A DNA stretch of 64,000 nucleotides from positions 3,038,001 to 3,102,000 of the forward strand of contig MU053304.1 in NCBI GenBank assembly GCA_013239625.1, in the 5' to 3' direction. Below the pieces are notes generated by a model, which worked only from the letters and a program-made list of their open reading frames with translations, was not told the origin of the DNA and made no database searches. Below, piece after piece: positions 17,468 to 30,160 of the stretch. Source of the stretch: Lama guanicoe (lineage: Eukaryota). The stretch's first letter is position 1. Every line of letters begins with the position of its first letter. The position numbers and the translations under genes were made by a program.

Positions 17468-20159
17468 CTATCAAGAGAAAAAGACAGAAAAAATAAGCAA
17501 AGACCTGGCAGGCAGGAATGCCTTTGGTACCTGCAGATTGCCTCACATGCCCTAACCTCATCTCAGGATGCCAAGCAACTCAGAGTCCAGGTGAGGAAAT
17601 CGGGTTCAGCAAGGATAGGCCTTGCCCAGCGTAACCCAGCTAAGTAATGGGAGAGGCAGTTTACGCCCAGTTGCGTTGTGTCTTCGTTCAGTGTCTGACA
17701 CCCTCGGGTGAGGGGACTCTAAATGTCACTCTCGTATCATTGATGTAAATCAGAGCCACTGGTCCCTTCCCAGCTTTTAACAACCATATGTCATGTCGTC
17801 TGTAAATTATACAAATAGGAAGCATCTTTGCAACAAGAATCAAGCAGCTAGTGCCAATCAAGTGCATAGAAGAATCTGATATAGCATGTGAAAAATCACT
17901 AAATTAAAAAAGTTAAAATGATCTACAAGTGGAAGAAAATGAATTTTTGTATTCATAGTCCAATTCAAATTTCCCTTTTAAAATTCTACCGTGCTTAGGC
18001 TAAAAGCATCCCCGTGAGCCTATGATCCACCACTCTGAACATTGCTCTTGCCCCGAACGTTTGGAGGGAGGTTAACGGACTGGGGACGTTCCGTACCTGA
18101 GGATACGAACAGCTTGTTTCACCCAGTTCTTCTTTGGATCTGCACACACGGCTAATCTTTTCCTTGTGTGAAAGCTGAAAAATCAGACAAATTAATTTGT
18201 ATTTAAAGAGCTTTTAATTTTTTTTCCCACAGAACATGCAATGAAAATTTCATATCCCAACTGTTTGCTCTATACCTTATACAGTTCATTTGTTTCAGAG
18301 GTGAGACAAATGCAAAAAGAAAGAAAAAGTTCCTTCTGATGACGCTTGACGCAAGGAATGAAAGTGATTCTCCCTGACTTTCGCTGCAATTTGGTTGCTC
18401 AGTGGCAGAAAGGTTAAGTCCCAGAACTGTTATTTAATTTTGTTTGTGGTGGTTACATGAACTATGTATATATCTGATCAATAGCTTTTCTCATTCAAAG
18501 TATAATACCCTCTATAAATCAAGAATATTGTATGTGACAGTATAATTGCTCTGAGCTTTTACTTACAGCCCCAACCACTTTCTGGTAGAAGATGCTCATT
18601 TCAAAGTTTATGTCTCTTGTATTTTCCTGAGATAGCATTTTAGTTGCTTATAAGTTTATCTTTGAAAGAGATTTTGCCCTCAGCTATATTCATTCTTTAA
18701 ACTAAGCTTTTGTTTTCTTCCAGTCCTATTGAAAATGAGCTTTGAAGTATACATGTCTACTAAAACAAAGCTGTCTTTGCTACAGCAGAAATTTCTGAAT
18801 GAAACTCCAAAAAGGCAAAGCTTTTTCTACCTGAAATTCCCATGGATTCCTAACATAATCGGCTTAGAACTCTTCATAACTTACATGATTGCGTTGATGT
18901 CACAAGCCTCATTGGCCAGCTGCTGTGTGAAGCCCACGATAAATCTGGGGTGAAGGATTCGTTCTGTATATTGGAGGCAGCAGTCAAAGGTGCTTGCTGC
19001 TAAAAAGAAATGAAAGGTACTGAGTCCACATAAGTGAACTTATTTCATGATAAATATTCTGGAAAACCTAGAATCTGATTCATATGGTAAATAAACTACC
19101 TAGAACAGTTCCAATACCTCTGAGACCCAATTTAACATAGTTTCCAGTTCTCTTAAAAAAATAGTTTATGTACTGAGAAATGTTGGTTCAATAGTACTAT
19201 TTAGAAGCACATGACTTCTCATAGAAGGAATACCTTTAGTAAGAAACACAAACTGACAGTGTTTTATTTCCATTCACTGAAATCACTCAAGAATATGTAC
19301 CTCCTTCTTGAAGAAACCCTTATGAGTAGACTTTCAAATGAATAAATTGGCAAATTTTAATCTACTATCTGGTTACTGAGTATTGAGAGGAAGGGGAAGA
19401 CAAGAAGTTACAAAGGAAAATAATTTATAGGAGCTGCTAATAAGAGCTTCAATTAAAGCATTTTGAAATTATAATATTAGTTAATACGAATTTTTTATTT
19501 TGTTCATAAAAGTTCAACACATGTATCTTCAGGAATGCACCTGTTGCTAAAAATGAGGTATTCTTACAGTAGTGAAACGATTCTTGGACACTCCCCCAAG
19601 TTAAATTACAACCTTCTGTAAGGTAAGGGATGCATTGGCAAGTGATGTCCTCAAAGCCTTGTAAGAATGAAGTCAGGGCCCTAATCCATCCCTAAAGGAT
19701 GAGTTTTGAACTTTGACAAAGTGAGAAAGTTGGAGAAGTGGGAGCGTTTCCTGCATTTCAGAATGACCCCATTCAGTGATAATGGTACACAATTTACCTC
19801 ACTCCCAGAAATAGCACTTTGGGCTTGTTCTGGAGCTTGGAGGTCTCTAAGAGTCCATCCACTCCCCTAAATCTGCTGGAATTAACCAAAGAAAAAGATC
19901 CTGATGGACAGCTGTGACCATTCCCTCTTCTACTCTCCAGTAAGATCACAACCCTCATCACCTCCTTTTGAAGATTTCCTAACAGGCTTGCATCCCCTGG
20001 GGACCCTCAGAGGAGCTCAAGGCCTGGAGGAAAATGAAAACAGTTCTTCCTCCTGTGCTCGAAGAAAGGGTGACACCTACCTTCTGACTTGCTGCAGAGG
20101 TGGAGTAGCAGCACTGACATCAAAGCAGCCAGGAGCAAACTCTTGGTACTGCACATCAT
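17446..20159 (-). CDS. CCL20: C-C motif chemokine 20 (MIP-3alpha/LARC), 4 coding exons: join(20081-20159, 18885-18999, 18097-18174, 17446-17467), 97 aa
   Basis: Manually spliced translation [97 protein letters not shown]. It has a signal peptide, the DCC motif and four chemokine cysteines. All introns are GT-AG, and 79+115+78+22 = 294 nt is in frame. Confidence 0.98.
18097..18174 (-). CDS. CCL20: CCL20 exon 3
   Basis: Acceptor GATTTTTCAG|; encodes [26 protein letters not shown]; donor CAG|GTACGG. Confidence 0.97.
18885..18999 (-). CDS. CCL20: CCL20 exon 2
   Basis: Acceptor TTTCTTTTTAG|CAG|CAA (tandem NAGNAG); encodes [39 protein letters not shown]; donor CAT|GTAAGT. Confidence 0.97.
20081..20159 (-). 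CDS. CCL20: CCL20 exon 1, coding part (signal peptide)
   Basis: ATG at 20159-20157; encodes [26 protein letters not shown]; donor GAAG|GTAGGT at 20080. Confidence 0.97.
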
Positions 20160-20224
20160 TTTCAGCTCAAAGAATGGATGTGCTCAGTGCTGGGTACCCA
20201 GTGCTCTGGGAGTGCTGTAAGGTT

Positions 20225-20375
20225 TGATAGCAGCCTAGGCCTAGGATGGCCCTACTTATAGCAAATATTGGGAATGTACACAGAAGGCGTGTTCCCACAT
20301 GGGGTTTTCCCCATTGATTAACCTGCCCCATTATGTCGTCATAAAGAAAAACCTCAGGGAAAACTTCCTGCCTTT
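20225..20375 (-). promoter_or_regulatory. CCL20: CCL20 proximal promoter (TATA-like box, NF-kB site, ETS site)
   Basis: Minus strand: TATAAGTA at 20260-20253, kappaB site GGGGAAAACCCC at 20312-20301, ETS core CAGGAAGT at ~20370-20363. The spacing fits the known NF-kB-driven CCL20 promoter. Confidence 0.85.
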
Positions 20376-21324
20376 CCCTAATGCTGGGAAGGTGTGAAGG
20401 TCAGGATCGAGTAGGGGGTGGAGGTTGAGAAGGGAAAATCCTGTAAAACCCTTTGAATTTGCAAAGGAGGAAAAGCAGTTCATTCCTGTGCCCAGAAAAG
20501 ATTTCTGCACAGTTTTAACTTAATCTCTTGTCTCTGAAAAGAGAGGATAAGGATGAACAGTAATACAAAGGTCATCCTCACACAGGAGCATTCCAGAACT
20601 CCTATTGTTACACTCTTGTTTGCTTTCAAGAGCCAAATGGGGGAGAGAGAGGATGAAGTGAACACCAAGCATACTCAGGCACGCAGGTACAATTTTATCA
20701 CTGGTACTCAGCTTTCACCAAAAGACTTGAATTTCTAGGCTACTCTTTGTAGCAGGTAATATAACAATGCTTAGTAGTGTCCCCAGTTTTAGTGGAAAAT
20801 ATTAGCTCTTAAACAAGACTCAAGCTTCAGCTTCATCTTGGTTTCAAGTCAACTTTTTCTAAACCTTCTACGTTAGCATGGCTCTAACCAACACTGCAGC
20901 CTGGAAAATGACCCCCACTTGCCCTTAACTCATCACGCTGATATGGTTACATAACTCAATACAAAGCCTCTGAAGAAAAAAAGAAGAGGAAACAACTCTA
21001 TCAGCAGTGGTTAATCAACAAAACAAAGGTCAAATTATAATGGTAGTGGTAATAATGTAGTATGAATCCCTAACCTCTGACAATGTAATAAGAACTCTCC
21101 ACCAGGAAGAATATCATTGTACGCTAAGGACTGGGTTTGAAATGACACAAGGGAGTTTGGGGGGGGGTGATGAAGTTATTTTCTATCCTATTATGGGCAT
21201 GGTTACACATAACTGCACATGTGTTAAAATTCACAGAGCTGTACATCAAAATAAAAAAGTGAATTGTATTATACGGCCATTTAAAAAATAGTTTAAAGAT
21301 ACTGAAATCATAAAAAAGAACTGT

Positions 21325-22408
21325 CCATTAAACATAAATAGGCTGTAAGTAAAGGATCCAAAAAGATTTATGATGCTAAGAGTAAACAAAAGAGAACTAG
21401 AGTTGCTATGCCTGATCTAACAAAATCGATTTTAAAACAAAACAAAAGTTACTGGGGATAAAGAGGGAGTTCCATAATGCTAAAGGATCAATCCATCAGA
21501 AAGATATATACCTAACAACAGCATCTCAAAATACATAAAGCAAAAACTGACAGAATTGAAGGGAAGAATAAAGAATTGAACAATAAAAGTTGGATACTTT
21601 GGTACCATATTTTCAATAATGAATAGAAAACCCAGACAGAAGATGTCCAAGAAAACAGAAGCCTTGAACAACACTATAAACCAACGAAACCTAACAGACA
21701 TCAATAGAACACTCTAACCAACAGCAATAGAACAGGCATGCTTCTGAAGTACACATGGAACATTCTTCCAAATAAATCATATGTTCTGCCATAGAACAAG
21801 TCTCAATAAATTTAAATCATACAAAATACATTTTCAAAGCACAATGGAATTAGAATTTAATGACAAAAGGAAATTTGGGGAATTCCTGAATATATGGATG
21901 TTAAACAGTACAGGCCTAAATAACCAATATGTCAAAGAAGTCAATAAAGAAAGAAAAAAATACTTTGAGACGAATGAAAATGAAAACACAACATATCAAA
22001 ACTTAAATGATGCAGTAAAAACCCTGCTCAGAGAGAAACTTAGAGCAAAACAATGGAGGAAATCAACAGAACCAAAAGTTGGTTAATTCTACTCAACATT
22101 CAAAGAAAAATTAAAAACCAATCCCTGATAAGCTTTTTTTTAAGAAAAGAGGAGGGAACAATTTATAACTCATTCTATGAGGACAGTATTACACTGATAT
22201 CAAAATAAGATAGAGACACCAGGAGAACACTACAGACCAATATCCCTTATGAATAGAGACACAGACATTCTAAGTGAAATGCTAGTAGACTGTGTTCAGC
22301 AACATACAAAAAGGATCATGCACTAAACCCAGGAAATGTAATACACAATAGTAACAGAGTGAAAAACAAAAACCATCTGAGAAGCATTTGAGAAAATCCC
22401 ACACCCAT
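21325..22408 (+). mobile_element. Old LINE-1 ORF2 fragment (endonuclease to RT-proximal region); 5' part of the L1 split by the inversion
   Basis: Degenerate ORF2 peptides (HRTSLNKFK, KYFETNENENTTYQNL); ends in GAAGCATTTGAGAAAATCCCACACCCAT, the L1 AFDKIQHP motif. Confidence 0.9.
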
Positions 22409-23053
22409 GCTTTAACAATCTCTGGTATCTCTTTCGGTTCTTGAAAGGAAGGAATTTATGCATGAGCCTATTAGTGGTTATCGAGTAGCATCATGTTTTT
22501 TTTTCTGAAAACTGGTATCGGACCTACTCCCTGTAAGAACTGTATGAAGTGTCACATTGATAGGTAGCTCATGTTTAATACTGAGACTGCGGCCGAAGGT
22601 GGAAGCCTTCTTCATCACGGTACTTCCTCTCGTGATGCCTGCACTGACCCCTGGCACCTTGGTTCTGGTTGGCTCTGCAGATCAGAGTGATATCCTTTGG
22701 TTACTCCTCCCCCAAATATCTCTTTAGTGGTCACGATGATATTTGTGGGCCTCTTTTTGAACCTCAGAAGCATTAGACCTTGGATTTCCTAGATCCAATA
22801 TGTAAGTATTTCTCGGTGTTATTACCCATCCTTGCAACATAGTGAATTTATGGGCTAGAGCTTTTGTCTCAAGATCAACAGGACACAAGGAAACAAGAGT
22901 TGTGGATATTTAGTGTGTTCTGGAAAGTACTTTTTACAAAACTGAGCTGCCCTGCTGAGGTTTGGGAGGAATCACCTGGCCTTAGCATACATAATAGTTA
23001 TTTTCTTCATAATTGCTTGCCCCAAATTGCCGTTTCTCAAAGAGCTTTCTTAA
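22402..23053 (+). pseudogene. ABCG2-like processed pseudogene, 3' half (transmembrane domain to stop), opposite orientation to the 5' half
   Basis: Plus strand reads HPCFNNL, ERKEFMHEPISGY, KLVSDLLPVR, LRPKVEAFFI, MIFVGLFLNL, LQHSEFMG*SFC and NHLALAYIIVIFFIIACPKLPFLKELS* (TAA 23051-23053). This matches the ABCG2 C-terminus as I recall it (NHVALACMIVIFLTIAYLKLLFLKKYS*). It has in-frame stops and frameshifts. Confidence 0.9.
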
Positions 23054-23099
23054 GCCAGTGCAGCAGGTATCTCTGAAACCCATGCCACATTCTTTTGGG

Positions 23100-23540
23100 T
23101 CACCTTGATTTCAGCCCCAGCCCCAGATAGTGGAGTGAACCCAGATCACATCAGGCTGACAACAGCTTACCCAGAGGTTGGTCTATTTGTCTTTCTGCTA
23201 CCAGGCCTTCTCAGGGCTGAGAGAGAATCCTGGACCAATCTCCTCACCCCCAGGCACAGCTTAAAACTGAACGCCCCTGAGGACGTTTCGCAGATAATGA
23301 AGGGTGTGAACCTGCTGACAATTAGTCTGTTCCCCGTCCTTCAGGGGGAATGATTCTGTAAGACTTCTCTTTGTTCTCTGGAGGTTCTAGTGGAATCAAT
23401 TCCCCAGTGCCCACAGAATGGCCTCGAAAGTTTTTCCTTCCCCTACCTCGACACCCCCACTACTTTGTTTCCTGGGATTAGCTCTCAGATACGTTACCTA
23501 CACCTGAGGCTCTGTTTTCAGGGGAATTCAAACTCAGAGT
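23100..23540 (+). mobile_element. ERVL-class LTR fragment
   Basis: The 3' end CTGAGGCTCTGTTTTCAGGGGAATTCAAACTCAGA resembles ERVL LTR termini. Confidence 0.5.
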
Positions 23541-24877
23541 CCAAGAAACAAGATGCCTGGTTTGTTTTCAGCATTCATTGTGGGAATTCACATTTTGCTA
23601 TCCTCCACTGAAGCTGGAACTTTTTATTTTTATTTTTAGTGATCTCTGTAATACCTCGGTGCTTGGTGTGTGTGATTAAGCCTGTATGGAAACTGTAGCT
23701 CATGTTACTATCTAAAGAAAACAAAAGCGTAGGCTGATGGTATATAATACCACCCATTTGATAATCAGATAATAAGCACTTGAGGAGGAAATGAGAAATG
23801 ATCTCTGACCTAGAGAGGAGAATCTGACTTCTTCATCTGGTCCTCATGGTTTAACCCTGATGAAGTTGAATGTCTCGCTGGCTTTGGTGTCTTCATCTTT
23901 AAAATTAAGGTCTTGAACTAGACGGTCTCCATGCTTCTCTAGCTTAGAAATTCTATGATTTGGTACTATTCAAAAGCCATAGTAAGAACCATGTTTTGTT
24001 CCTCAAAGCTCAGCTGCAGTCAAGAGCCAGTGGTGTAGAAGCTGGAAAGTTCAGGCTGTCTGGTTCTTTGTACCCTGAATCCCATCCACCTCCCACAAGG
24101 AATCAAATATCACATTCTCTATTAAAATATCTGTTATCTAGTAGGTGCTCAGTAAATGTTGTTTTTCCCTTACATTTTGGCATTTATTTTCCATATATTT
24201 AAATTTTTATTGATAGATCAATTTATTAAATCACACTGTTTCTTTCTTCCAATTTTTGTATACATGCTGCCAAAGCGATCACTGTACCTTTCTTCTATAA
24301 TTTTTTTTTTATTGAAGTATAGTCAGTTTACAATGTTGTGTCAATTTCTGGTGCACAGCACGATTCTTCAGTCATACAGTAAACGCTGTTTTAAAAGGAA
24401 CTTCTACCATCTTCCAAAAGACTTTTCATGGAATCCTTCTCAGGAAGAGAAGTTTTTGATGGTCACTCTGGTTAAGTCAGCATGGCTTGTCTTATTCTCA
24501 TCCGTCACAGAAATGGAAGGGGAGTTAACTTCTAAATAGTCACATTTTGTTAATTTCTATGAAAATATTTCATATAATATGAATATGGCACTTACCATAT
24601 TGCTTTGTTTTATAGTTATTTGTGTATTTTAGTTTTCTTATTGCAAATTTCCTTTAATGTAGTCATAATGTTCTAGCCATCTGTATATACCACTAAGTCC
24701 CTTCCACGGAAGACACTTGTCAAATTTTTTTCTGGAAAAAAAATAAAAAGAGCGAGACACTGGGACTCTACTACATGCAGGTCTCATTAGGAATACCCTG
24801 AGACAGTGGAAAAGAATGGCTAGAAACTAAATTCCAGTGTGGTAATAACCTTTTTAAAAATGTTTACATTAAAAAAA

Positions 24878-25040
24878 ATTTTTATTAAAGTATAGTCAGT
24901 TTACAATGTGTCAGTTTCTGGTATATATCATAAGATTTCAGTCATACATATACATATGTATATTCGTTTTCAGATTCTTTTTCATTATAGGTTACTACAA
25001 GATAACGAATACAGTTCCCTGGGCTATACAGAAGAAATTT
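24878..25040 (-). mobile_element. Truncated cetartiodactyl/camelid L1 3' end (related copies at ~24300-24380, 34435-34630, 50480-50830, 52120-52620, 53480-53770)
   Basis: TTTTATTAAAGTATAGTCAGTTTACAATG...CATTATAGGTTACTACAAGATA..AGTTCCCTGGGCTATACAG, shared among these copies. Confidence 0.8.
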
Positions 25041-25432
25041 GATAATAGCCTTCTAATAAGTTGGGTTTGAAATAATTTTCTTATGTTAACCTTATTAGCA
25101 TATTCATTGGCTGAACAAAAAATCAATTGAAGGTCACATTTAAAAAAATTTAAATAACAAATATGAAATGACACATCTATCAAACTAAAGATAGGGAAAT
25201 ACAATTTCAATCAATGTAAAATTATCAAAAAATCAGTTCTCTTTTATAGTTATAAAAAGAGAGATGGGATTAAGAGATGAGAGAGGGAAGAGAACAGGAG
25301 AGCCTATGTGGAACAGAGAAGAAGGGGAAATGAACACAGATTGAAAGCAGTTAACAGCAGAAGTAAAGAAAGAAAGGGGGTCTGTGAGCTGGGGTCATTA
25401 TTAGATACACATAGGTGGAGAATTTTTGTTGT

Positions 25433-27634
25433 CATTATCGGCTTTATTGAGATACAATTCACATACCATAAAATTCACTCTTTTAAAGTGCACAATTCAG
25501 TGTGTTTTAGTGTATTCACAAGGTTATAAAAACTCATCACTTTCTATTTTTAGATTAAAAACGTAAGGAAGAAACTTCATACCCAGAAGCAGTCACTGTC
25601 CCTTCCCCTCTTTTCCCTTAACCCCTCAGCCTAGCTCTAGACCATCACTATTCTATTTCCTGTATATCTGTAGGTGTGCTGGGTTTGAACATTTGATATA
25701 AATAGAATCAAATAATAGGTGGCTTTTTTTTCTACTTAGTATATATGTTTTCAAGGTTCATCCACGTTGTAGTTCCATCAGGATTTCTCTTACTTTTATT
25801 GCCAAATAATATTCCAATGCATAATTTCACCAAGTTTTATGTATCTATTCATCAGTTGATGACATTTGGATCATTTCCACTCTTTGGCTATTATGAATAA
25901 TGCTGCCATAGATGTTCATACAAGTCTTTGCGTGGAGATACATTACTTCTCTCGAGTATATACCTAAGAGTGGAATTGCTGGGTCATACGGTGAATCGTA
26001 CGCTTAACCATTTGAGGGTCTGTCAATGTGTTTCTCAAAGTGACTGCGCATTTTTCATTTCCATCAGTAACGCATAAGGATTTTAATTTCTCCACATCAT
26101 TGCCAACACTTATCTTTCTAATTATGTCACGTCTTTGTGGGTGTGAAGTGGTATGTCACTGTTGTTTTGATTTATATTTACCTAATGACTAATGATGTTA
26201 AGCACCTTTTCATGTGCTTGTTGACCATTTATGTATCTTTGGAAAAAAGTCTTTTCCAATATTTTGTCCATTTTTAAATTGGATTATTTATTTTTATATT
26301 ATTGAGTTGCGGGAGCTCTTCATATATTCTGGGTACAAACATAAGCCCCTTATCAAATATATGACTTGCAAATATTTCCTACCTTTCCATGGCTTGTTTT
26401 TCCACACTTTTTATAGTCTCACTTGAAGCAGAAAAGTTTATAGTTTTGATATAGCCCAATTTGTTTTTCATTTTGTTTCTTGAGCTTTTGGTCTTGTATC
26501 TGAAAAATCATTGCCCAACCCAAGGTCATGAAGATTTACTTCTGTTTTCTTCTAAGAGTTTCATAGTTTTAGCTCCTATATTTAGGTCTATGATCCATTT
26601 TGAGTTAATTTTTGTGTATGGTGTGAAGTAACAGCATTAACATGATTAACATTATTCTTTTGCATGTAAATATCCAGTTGTCCCAGTACCTTTTGCTGAA
26701 AAAACTATTCTCTCCTCCATTGAAAAGTCTTGGTGCCGTAATCAACAATCAGTTGACCATAGATCTGAAGGGTTATGTCTCAATTCTGTTTCATTGATCT
26801 ATATGTCTACACTTCTGCCAGTGTCACATGTCTTGATTAGCGCAGTTTTAAAGTAAGTTTGGGAATCAGGAAGTGTAAGTTCTCTTTTGTTTGTTCTTCC
26901 TCTCTAAGGTTGTTTTGGTTATTTGAAATCCATAATTCCAGATGAATTTGAGTATTGACTTTTTCATTTCCAAAAAGAAGTCAGCGGAATTTTGATAGGA
27001 CTTGCATTGAATCTAGATCAGTTTGGGGAGTGGTGCCATCTTAATACTAATGTCTCCCAGTCCATGACATGGTACATCTTTCCATTCACTTAGAAGCCTT
27101 CTTTATTTCTTTAATAATGTTTTACAGCTTTAAGTTACTTTTTTACTTCTTTTGTTAAATTTATACCTAGATATTTTATTCATTTTATGCTATTATAAAG
27201 GGAATTGTTTTCTTAATTCTGTATTCAAGTTTTTTATTGATATTGTATAGAAATACAGTTGGGTTTTTTTTTGTATATTGATCTTGAATCTTGCAACCTG
27301 GTTGAACTTAGTTTAATGGTTTTTTAGCAGATTCTTTAGGATTTTCTACATACAAGATTATCCTATTTGCAAATTAAGATAGTTACCACTTCTTTTCCAA
27401 TCTAGGTGTCTTCCCCCTTTTCTTGACTAATTATCCTGGCTAGAACCTCCAGCAGAATGATAAATAGAACTTGTAAGAGCAGACATCTCTTCTTGTTCTT
27501 GATCTCAGGGGGAACACATGCAGTCTTTCAACATTAAGTATGATATGAGCTGTGAGATTTTCATAGGTGACCTTTATCAGGTTGAGGAAGTTCTCTACTA
27601 TTTCTAGTTTGCTGAGTTTTTATTATGATGGGTG
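25433..27634 (-). mobile_element. Old LINE-1 (L1MB-like) ORF2 3' part and 3'UTR; continuation of the L1 at 21.3-22.4 kb
   Basis: On the minus strand it begins CACCCATCATAATAAAAACTCAGCAAACTAG...AACTTCCTCAACCTGATAAAGG, which directly follows the AFDKIQHP motif in L1. It ends in an L1MB-type 3' end near 25435. Confidence 0.9.
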
Positions 27635-28897
27635 GCAAGTCAAATAAAACCAGGAGCCAGCTCTATTCTGAATTCCTGCAAGGGTGGTTGTTTCAACCAA
27701 AATGAAGAGCCCCAAACCAGTCTGAGGATAACAGGCTCTATTATCTCAGAGATGGAGACTTGAGGGTCTCCACATGGATGTTTGGGTGAGTGTTTGGACA
27801 CCCATATAAGTCATGACCAAAGAAAGCGGTATATGTTTTATATGTGAAAACCGGGTACTCCTTTTCTGGCCTATGGAGAGACCCTCCAGTTCAGATTTAG
27901 CGTCTCTGTGGGTAGAGGGATTAACATAAAATTCAGCCATCTCCTCTCTGCAGTGTCTGTTCTCACCAGGAGGCTCTTCAGTCGCCTCTGGTCTCCCACT
28001 TGCTCAGTCTCTGTGTAGTCACAGCAGAGGAGTGTCCATTAATGACACACAGGAGGAAATCAGCAGGGCTGCTACAGGACTCACACTAGAAACCAACAGA
28101 TGCAACCAAAGTTTCCTGTCCGGGGCCATAAAACCTCACCTTTCCCGAGGCCAGGAAGGGAAGGCTACCAAGCAGTCTGCAGGTGGTGTGATGATGCTGA
28201 CGAACAGAGGTGATGCTCCTTCCCTGCCCTGACATCTTCCCCAGGAGAACTGCATGGGATGTGCCAGCATCCAAGCCCAGAGTGGGCTCATCCAGACGTG
28301 GGGCAAGACAGCTGGATCTGAAATCACCTCTCTTCTGATGCTGATCTTCTTTCTCTCTCCCCCAGACACACTCCAAATTAGCTGGTCTCCCACCCAAAGT
28401 CCACCACTTTGCTCTTGTCTGGGTCTTGAATGATTTTGTTAATGTGTTTGTTTTTGGCCTGACTGCTCATACTTGCCTAAGGGCTGCTGAAAATTCAAGT
28501 TTTCTCTTACTGTCAAAGTCCTCATCATGATAAATCTCGGACTACATAATCCGCGGTACTTTGAAAGTTGGCAGGTTGAGGCTTTCCATTTAGCAGAGTA
28601 TCTCCAAAGGGTCCACAGGGGTCCTCCTTTGCAGCCAATATGCTTAACAAATGAGGATTTGCCTCCCCTCAACGGTCCCCAAATTGCATTAAGACCAGAT
28701 TTCCTCACCCAACTGACATCCTTCAGTATCTCATTCTCAACGGCTTTGACCAACTCTTTCCCTTAACTTGACAGCATATACTACAAAAACTTGACACAGG
28801 TCAAACAGGTAACATCCCAAAGCTATGGAGGGCCCAGTACATGGACCATTGGTGTTTGTTTAGACACTGGGAAAACGGAAACATTCTTTGCAGGCAT
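27628..28897 (-). pseudogene. ABCG2-like processed pseudogene, 5' half (nucleotide-binding domain to start of transmembrane domain)
   Basis: Intronless and frameshifted. Reads SGLNAIWGPLRGGKSS (Walker A), TLTVRENL, VSGGERKKISI (ABC signature), LDEPTLGLDAGTSHAVLL (Walker B/D-loop), SPADFLLCVINGHSSAV, AEFYVNPS and GIQNRAG..FYLTC, collinear with ABCG2. ATG at 28897-28895. Confidence 0.93.
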
Positions 28898-29224
28898 CTA
28901 GAAAAAAAACTTTCTCTACTGTGATGCCATGGGATGGAATGAATCTTTCCCACAGAATTCTAAGTGGAATCCTGATTTATGAAACTTCCAGGGCCACTTC
29001 TTTCCTGCTGTGGAAAATCACCTCTGCTTAGTATGAATTTTAAAACATGCACATGCCTGCATGCACACACACACATAACACATACATATACACACATACA
29101 CACAAAGGGCGAAGTAAGGGGGAGGAGAGACAAAGGATGGGAATTATTATCGCCCAAAGGAAAGGTCCAGAGGGGATGCCTCATTTAAATGGACTCTACT
29201 ATTCACTGAAGACGATGAAGAGAA

Positions 29225-30160
29225 ATTCATTCGTTCATTCATTCAACAAAGATTTTTGTGCACCTAATTTGTGCCAGAGGCTGTTCATGGCACCTGGGAT
29301 AGAGTGGTAAACAAAACAAAGTCTCTACCCTCATGCATCTTGGATTTTAGTAGATGAAACAGAGAAGAAACAAATAAATTAACATATAAGAAATCTAATA
29401 TTGGATAAGGTCAGGGTTATGAAGAAAGATAAAGTGCGATAACAGGGAAAGGCTGTCCATGGTGCCATTTTACATAGGATAATCAGGAAAGCATCTCTGG
29501 AGGAGACATTGAGCAGAGAGCTGAATAAAGTAAAGGAGTGAGCTTTGCAGGTATTTAGGGAAGAGCATCCAAAGTGGAAGGAACAGGAAGTGCAACATCC
29601 CTGAGACAGGAAAGTGCTTGGGGTGCTTGAGGGCCGGCGGGGCCAGCGTGCTGGAGCAGATGGAGTGAGGGGCACAGTGGCATGAGACAAGGCCAGGGAG
29701 GTGGCCAGGAGGCAAACTAGGTGAGGAGCTCCTTGTTGTTCTAAACGGCACGGGGTGGGATACCACTGGATAGACTAATGTAGGAGGGGAAAATGTGCCC
29801 TGATTTAGGATTTTAAAAGCATCCCTGACTCTGTGAGGAGAACAAAATAGAAGCAAGGAGAGCAATGATGAAGCTTGTTAATACTAGGGTGGACATGGTG
29901 GAGAAGGTCAGAAGTAGCTGGACTGGGGATAGAGTCTAAAGGTACAAAGAACAGTTATTTTATGTAAATTGGGTCATGAATGTGGAAGAGAAAGAAAAGG
30001 TAAGATTGACTCCAGATGTTTTGTCCTGATAACTAAAGGGATGGTAGTTCAGTTTAATCAGATGGGGAGCAGTGAGCAAGGAGTAGATTATTGGGGGAAG
30101 AATGGAATCAAGAGTTCCGTCCCATCTGTAATGTCTAATGGACATGCAGAGAGAGAAGTT
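29225..30160 (-). mobile_element. L2 LINE 3' region
   Basis: ATTCATTCGTTCATTCATTCAACAAA tail; TTTTAAAAGCATCCCTGACTCTGTG and AAGATTGACTCCAGATGTTTTG L2 motifs. Confidence 0.8.

Follow-up and report, generated by a model that had tools for sequence, protein, structure and literature searches.

We analysed a 64-kb stretch of the Lama guanicoe genome (contig MU053304.1 of assembly GCA_013239625.1, positions 3038001-3102000; hereafter, the window), which contains the gene CCL20 and, upstream of it, pieces of two retroelements. The segment between positions 22409 and 27627 of the window is very probably a real inversion of ~5.2 kb that was exchanged at a 7-bp inverted microhomology and is balanced to within 1 nt. 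The two elements that it joins are an old long interspersed element 1 (LINE-1, or L1) and an intronless retrocopy of ABCG2. In the present order, the 5′ part of the L1 (plus strand) is followed by the 3′ half of ABCG2 (plus), the 3′ part of the L1 (minus) and the 5′ half of ABCG2 (minus). One inversion accounts for all four pieces, which are listed here together with the heptamers at the two junctions.

21330 to 22408, plus strand: L1 5′ part, 5′-truncated; from the endonuclease region of open reading frame 2 (ORF2) to about residue 611 of human ORF2p, with internal deletions just before the junction
22402 to 22408, plus strand: left junction heptamer CACCCAT, common to the L1 end and the ABCG2 start
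22409 to 23053, plus strand: ABCG2 processed pseudogene, 3′ half; covers codons 438-655, up to the place of the stop codon, and is interrupted by stops and frameshifts
25441 to 27634, minus strand: L1 3′ part; ORF2 from about residue 610 to the 3′ terminus of the element at about 25441
27628 to 27634, minus strand: ATGGGTG, heptamer of the right junction and reverse complement of CACCCAT
27635 to 28762 (at least), minus strand: ABCG2 processed pseudogene, 5′ half; residues 57-437

Un-inverting 22409-27627 restores colinearity on both sides, in ABCG2 and in the L1 alike, as is expected of a simple inversion. No base was lost or gained in ABCG2, and at most one in the L1. An initial annotation of the window had proposed a near-balanced, microhomology-mediated inversion between two unrelated retroelements, and the colinearity of both elements and the equal decay of their halves bear this proposal out.

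Continuity of the ABCG2 retrocopy

Both halves of the retrocopy were recognised by comparison with human ABCG2. Residues 57-146 align to 28747-28478 of the minus strand (expectation value, E, 2e-7) and residues 378-414 to 27807-27697 of the same strand (E 0.0015), and residues 495-534 align weakly to 22575-22694 of the plus strand (E 0.14), although all five matches listed for this last piece were to ABCG2. By our own reading, the 5′ half probably extends to about 28900. The N-terminal piece at 28740-28859 gave no match in PDB, and the matched part of the 5′ half starts at residue 57. The reading frame is disabled by many stops and frameshifts, and a Pfam scan of 86 stop-free pieces of the window returned sub-threshold, unrelated families only. 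A search for longer homologous proteins with a 107-amino-acid ABCG2 piece scored 0 of 84 candidates, and a search of the same genome with a 56-amino-acid piece or with 992 bp of retrocopy DNA gave the window itself as the sole match.

In the same genome, Pfam PF01061 and a tblastn comparison with pieces of the window led to the parent gene, which lies on the minus strand of contig C55223, at 13250291-13278068. Five separate parent exons, spread over 10 kb in the parent gene, match the 5′ half in order and lie contiguously in the window (63-126 bp, 68-80% identity). Two further exons match the 3′ half (72-73%), and the second of these ends at the parent stop codon, which corresponds to window position 23053. 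The junction falls in a small parent exon that reads RAGVLFFLTTNQCFSSV... (also written RAGVLFFLTTNQCFSSVSAVELLVVEKKLF) and that aligns to both sides in the window. The 5′ side of the retrocopy ends ...TTGACTTGCCACCCAT and the 3′ side starts CACCCATGCTTTAACAAT..., with the heptamer occupying the same columns of the parent exon and with no gap. Seven exon matches in order, together with the junction exon, are thus contiguous and intronless, the arrangement of a processed pseudogene. Weighted identity to the parent exons is ~72% in both halves (352/491 and 121/167). As judged by these alignments, the two halves are one intronless, long-dead ABCG2 processed pseudogene that was cut at codons 436-438. 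The initial annotation had held that flipping the segment restores ABCG2 in frame as FYLTCHPCFNNL. This reading is correct, and the parent exon spans the junction without an insertion or deletion. The halves, which had to be contiguous if the proposal was right, abut at codons 436-438 of that exon and are equally diverged.

The outer limits of the retrocopy are less distinct than its junction. No similarity was found between its 3′ untranslated region (UTR) and the 4.2 kb downstream of the last coding exon of the parent, so that its 3′ end and poly(A) tail were not delimited. No convincing target-site duplication was present among the flank repeats of 20900-29500. A 16-nt inverted pair in this interval (21218-21233 and 29034-29049) is at about the level of chance, with ~0.4 such pairs expected by our estimate. 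The introns and downstream DNA of the parent gene contain L1 copies that are 65-72% identical to the L1 of the window.

Continuity of the L1

The L1 was examined in the same manner, except that other copies from the same genome took the place of a parent gene. At the protein level, 22216-22323 (plus strand) aligns with residues 525-560 of human L1 ORF2p in PDB (E 1.7e-5), and 27616-27485 (minus strand) aligns with residues 617-660 (E 3.4e-4). For the left flank, the best 40 of 1,560 candidate copies were scored (70-79% identity). Eleven of these copies were compared with both parts in the window, and three more were fetched with the right flank. The L1 sequence was continuous across the junction point in 13 of the 14 copies (10/11 in the left-flank set and 3/3 in the right-flank set); the exception, L006, gave no alignment at the junction point. 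In the window, the left part ends ...CCCACACCCAT (also written ...GAGAAAATCCCACACCCAT), and the right part, when reverse-complemented, starts CACCCATCATAATAAAA (also written CACCCATCATAATAAAAACTCAGCAAACTAG). The break is equally evident from the other direction: all 39 of the other L1 copies that matched 27500-27800 stop at positions 111-138 of this query, in which the heptamer occupies positions 129-135.

The claim that un-flipping yields a continuous L1 holds for the adjacency of the two parts but not for perfect continuity. The left part is without about 47-72 nt, relative to other copies, shortly before the junction, and one base is missing besides. The distance between the two protein alignments is consistent with an L1 deletion before the junction, as 96 nt are present between ORF2p residues 560 and 617 where 168 nt are expected. 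The ORF2p residues, the 13 continuous copies and the 39 that stop all place the two parts next to each other, and the two are equally diverged, at some 66-69% identity to one reference copy; the separate alignments to one long copy give 67-74% for the left part (21525-22319) and 65-66%, over 1.2-1.5 kb, for the right part (26140-27631).

The limits of the element are defined by the same copies. None of 39 other copies matches further left than 21330, whereas the 3′ boundary at ~25441 is sharp and common, with 26 of 44 other copies starting at 25419-25447 and none earlier. Because similarity starts at 21330 and the 3′ boundary is sharp, the sequence indicates that the element is an old, 5′-truncated L1 of about 3.3 kb. 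Its assignment to LINE-1 agrees with the ORF2p matches, with the thousands of dispersed candidate copies in a first look and with the common 3′ boundary; we take it to belong to an ancient mammalian-wide L1 family. Directly left of the 5′ end is an A-tailed short sequence (21180-21290, plus strand), to which no other genomic copy was matched and which presumably resembles the 3′ terminus of a further old L1. The tail of this neighbouring element may have been the insertion site of the present L1.

Sequence identity at the two junctions

The initial annotation had placed CACCCAT at 22402-22408 and ATGGGTG at 27628-27634, and both heptamers are found there. Heptamers of this sequence are frequent in the window (CACCCAT occurs five times and ATGGGTG four times); what chance does not give is that both copies lie precisely where the homology to two elements ends. 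The identity between L1 and ABCG2 at the junctions is exactly 7 bp, and the adjacent bases mismatch on both sides. There is no longer inverted repeat at the breakpoints: of the 22 inverted pairs in 20900-29500, the longest (27 nt, 70% complementarity) lies elsewhere. Such short identity, with no long inverted repeat, is the pattern of a microhomology-mediated inversion. In the 2.05-Gb assembly, each of the two junction flanks matches at 100% in one place only, and neither has a second copy. Metagenome scans with the 32-mers of both junctions gave 0 matches.

Several observations weigh against a clean exchange of this kind. The parent ABCG2 reads AACCAAT at the position of the heptamer, so that the retrocopy differs from it at 2 of 7 bases, and the 7-bp match may have been imperfect before the event. 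Two differences in seven equal the average decay of the retrocopy, however, and are therefore uninformative as to whether the match was perfect at that time. Other L1 copies mostly carry a different base at position 6 of the heptamer, and the L1 is one base shorter than the other copies just after it. Since neither target-site duplications nor the poly(A) tail of the retrocopy were identified, it is colinearity that carries the ancestral order. Finally, 20 sequencing runs in which 82-94% of sampled words are found fit either orientation; these word shares come from three organism codes and 8 studies, and ~1% of the words are able to span a junction.

Interior of the proposed inversion and the neighbouring DNA

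The remaining features of the flipped segment, and the gene that it adjoins, are as follows.

23054 to 24303, plus strand: mostly single-copy DNA, with matches to itself and three short matches only
24304 to 24378 and 24870 to 25046, minus strand: two copies of one high-copy fragment of a younger repeat, with non-repeat DNA between them
18075 to 20162, minus strand: CCL20 exons 1-3; an open reading frame at 20007-20183 (minus) encodes a signal peptide, and PDB gives a CCL20 match
20159, minus strand: CCL20 start codon, in exon 1
About 18884 to 18997, minus strand: CCL20 exon 2; PDB CCL20 residues 1-37 (E 1.1e-17)
Around 18125, minus strand: CCL20 exon 3

The DNA at 23054-24303 is presumed to be the decayed 3′ UTR of ABCG2. 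The part at 23064-24168 is single copy and has no similarity to the DNA downstream of the parent ABCG2, and the 82 bp at 24168-24249 are 93% identical to a single further site in the genome (C6476). The best 40 of 4,727 first-look candidates were scored for the two younger fragments and are mostly 84-89% identical to them; we take the fragments to come from a younger L1 family, of which they would be the 3′ end in antisense. They lie 570 bp apart in direct orientation and are 97% identical to each other over the first 31 nt and 76% over the next 42, which may reflect either a duplication at the locus or two insertions. Beyond the other end of the segment, a TG-rich microsatellite lies just past the 5′ region of the retrocopy (29045-29105, read on the minus strand), and the sequence at 29225-29330, also read on the minus strand, presumably resembles a MIR element.

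The inversion had been described as lying ~2 kb upstream of CCL20, which agrees with what we find: the gene is on the minus strand, and 2,243 bp separate its start codon from the left junction upstream. The inverted segment thus corresponds to about −2.2 to −7.5 kb relative to the CCL20 start. The proximal promoter region of CCL20 (20162-20400) lies, intact, outside the rearrangement, with the gene on one side and the repeat block on the other.

Discussion

We propose that the ancestral locus carried an old, 5′-truncated L1 of ~3.3 kb on the plus strand, followed, tail to tail, by the intronless ABCG2 retrocopy on the minus strand. Each element would have had CACCCAT in its own sense, and the two copies on the chromosome were therefore mutually inverted. 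A single exchange at this 7-bp inverted match would have flipped all of the DNA between the copies, which is now at 22409-27627. When the segment is un-inverted, the 3′ ends of the L1 and the retrocopy face each other within about 2.4 kb. The L1 endonuclease prefers A/T-rich target sites and, given this preference, the landing of one element near the tail of the other would be unremarkable.

One could envision two molecular routes for the exchange. One is a pair of replication template switches of the FoSTeS (fork stalling and template switching) or MMBIR (microhomology-mediated break-induced replication) type at the same inverted microhomology, in which the nascent strand would leave at one heptamer, copy the interval backwards and return at the other. 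In the second, complementary single strands of 7 nt would anneal at two breaks. The presence of the same heptamer at both junctions, without loss, fits both routes, and we infer that one of the two was taken. Plain blunt end-joining of two breaks was rejected, as the heptamer would then not be retained at the two junctions.

A related question is when the inversion took place. A possible but somewhat doubtful refinement of the proposed inversion, and not an alternative to it, is that the event is young relative to both elements and perhaps lineage-restricted or polymorphic. All 14 of the heptamer bases are still complementary in elements that have lost about 28-34% of their bases. The survival of 14 bases is approximately exp(−14d), which is 0.02 at d = 0.28 and 0.66 at d = 0.03. 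The two heptamer changes that are specific to the retrocopy, relative to its parent, also suggest an interval between the insertion and the inversion. Set against element decay, the intact bases hint that the event was much younger than the insertions, but the comparison is subject to ascertainment bias because a decayed microhomology would be read as a shorter one. Three organism codes carry the stretch, but their word shares are not specific to the junctions.

Another explanation is that the assembler misoriented a 5.2-kb piece. The assembly is indeed fragmented (55,231 contigs), but the window contains no Ns, and a misoriented contig normally has at its ends gaps or repeats that exceed the assembler word size, not 7 bp. 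Moreover, the two junctions are reciprocal and precise to the single base in two unrelated elements, and neither junction flank has a second copy in the assembly. We consider such an artefact unlikely. Each junction taken alone, with the 5′ part of one RNA meeting the 3′ part of a different one at a short microhomology, is shaped like a chimeric retrogene, and chimeric retrogenes formed by template switching are a known class. It could thus be argued that reverse transcriptase switched from L1 RNA to ABCG2 mRNA in one case and in the reverse direction in another, and that two independent chimeric retrocopies inserted tail to tail. For this, the two switches would have to fall on the very same nucleotide in both templates and yield exactly complementary halves without overlap; decay is also equal in the two halves of each element, and no target-site duplications were found around either chimera. 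We think that this origin is highly improbable.

A mechanism that depends on the retroelements themselves, either homologous recombination between inverted copies of one repeat or L1 twin priming, is hardly credible. Both breakpoints do lie in oppositely oriented retroelements, and the size of the segment is near the median of L1-mediated inversions, 5,487 bp in the available part of PMC9675761. The breakpoints are in L1 ORF2 and in ABCG2 coding sequence, however, which are unrelated and have only 7 bp in common, and homologous recombination was rejected for this reason. Twin priming leaves an inverted 5′ piece beside a sense 3′ piece, with poly(A) at the outer end. It was rejected as well, given that the element halves are 5.2 kb apart and their 3′ ends point inward (the L1 end at 25441 and the ABCG2 stop at 23053).

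With regard to CCL20, the inversion of 22409-27627 probably has no effect, because the DNA that was flipped consists of retroelement remains, and the 2.2 kb adjoining the start codon was left as it was. A more consequential scenario is that a young inversion, lineage-restricted or segregating, arose by a double template switch at an imperfect match and changed how far from CCL20 its distal regulatory DNA (−2.2 to −7.5 kb) lies, or which way this DNA faces; we regard this as decidedly unlikely. The event is of a known kind, structurally clean but ordinary, in non-functional, repeat-derived DNA. Its value lies in an essentially loss-free inversion that is resolved to the base pair and in an ancestral state that can be read from two broken elements. 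The same microhomology at both junctions narrows the mechanism to paired template switches or single-strand annealing rather than blunt joining. If the inversion proved to be lineage-restricted, it could serve as a rare-genomic-change marker. The locus is also a caution for annotation, as the four pieces could otherwise be called as two L1 and two ABCG2 fragments, or as two chimeric retrocopies. A literature search for an inversion at CCL20 in camelids found no paper.

Comparison with known systems

Twin-priming inversions and the chimeric retrogenes that arise by template switching likewise join L1 to another RNA-derived sequence at microhomologies of a few bases. They differ from the arrangement described here in that each is one insertion with one junction, whereas here there are two reciprocal junctions in elements that were already inserted, with 3′ ends pointing inward.

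The inversions described as transposable element-mediated rearrangements (TEMR) in the available part of PMC9675761 likewise have oppositely oriented retroelements at their breakpoints and, for L1, a median size (5,487 bp) close to that of the present segment. Those inversions join homologous elements (median L1 similarity 97.1%, according to the same part), whereas here an L1 is joined to ABCG2 through 7 bp. In the non-homologous class of that study, as far as its available text goes, nearly 96% of events have less than 5 bp of microhomology, and a 7-bp match is therefore at the long end. Retrocopies of ABCG2 are known from human: the available part of a catalogue of human ABC pseudogenes gives ABCG2P1 at 14q24.3 and ABCG2P2 at 15q23 only, and neither is listed there at the human CCL20 locus (PMC2329642).

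The closest likeness is to the simple inversions that have been catalogued in mammals. These are likewise of kilobase scale, with short identity at the breakpoints and without long repeats. Breakpoint microhomology of inversions is standard and is explained by replication-based models (FoSTeS/MMBIR) or by microhomology-mediated end joining, and about half of complex non-retrotransposon variants have 3-25 bp of microhomology (PMC3439969). The inversion upstream of CCL20 differs from these catalogued cases in having the same heptamer at both junctions and in being balanced within 1 nt. It differs also in that no outgroup is needed for its reconstruction, as each of its breakpoints lies in a recognisable element.

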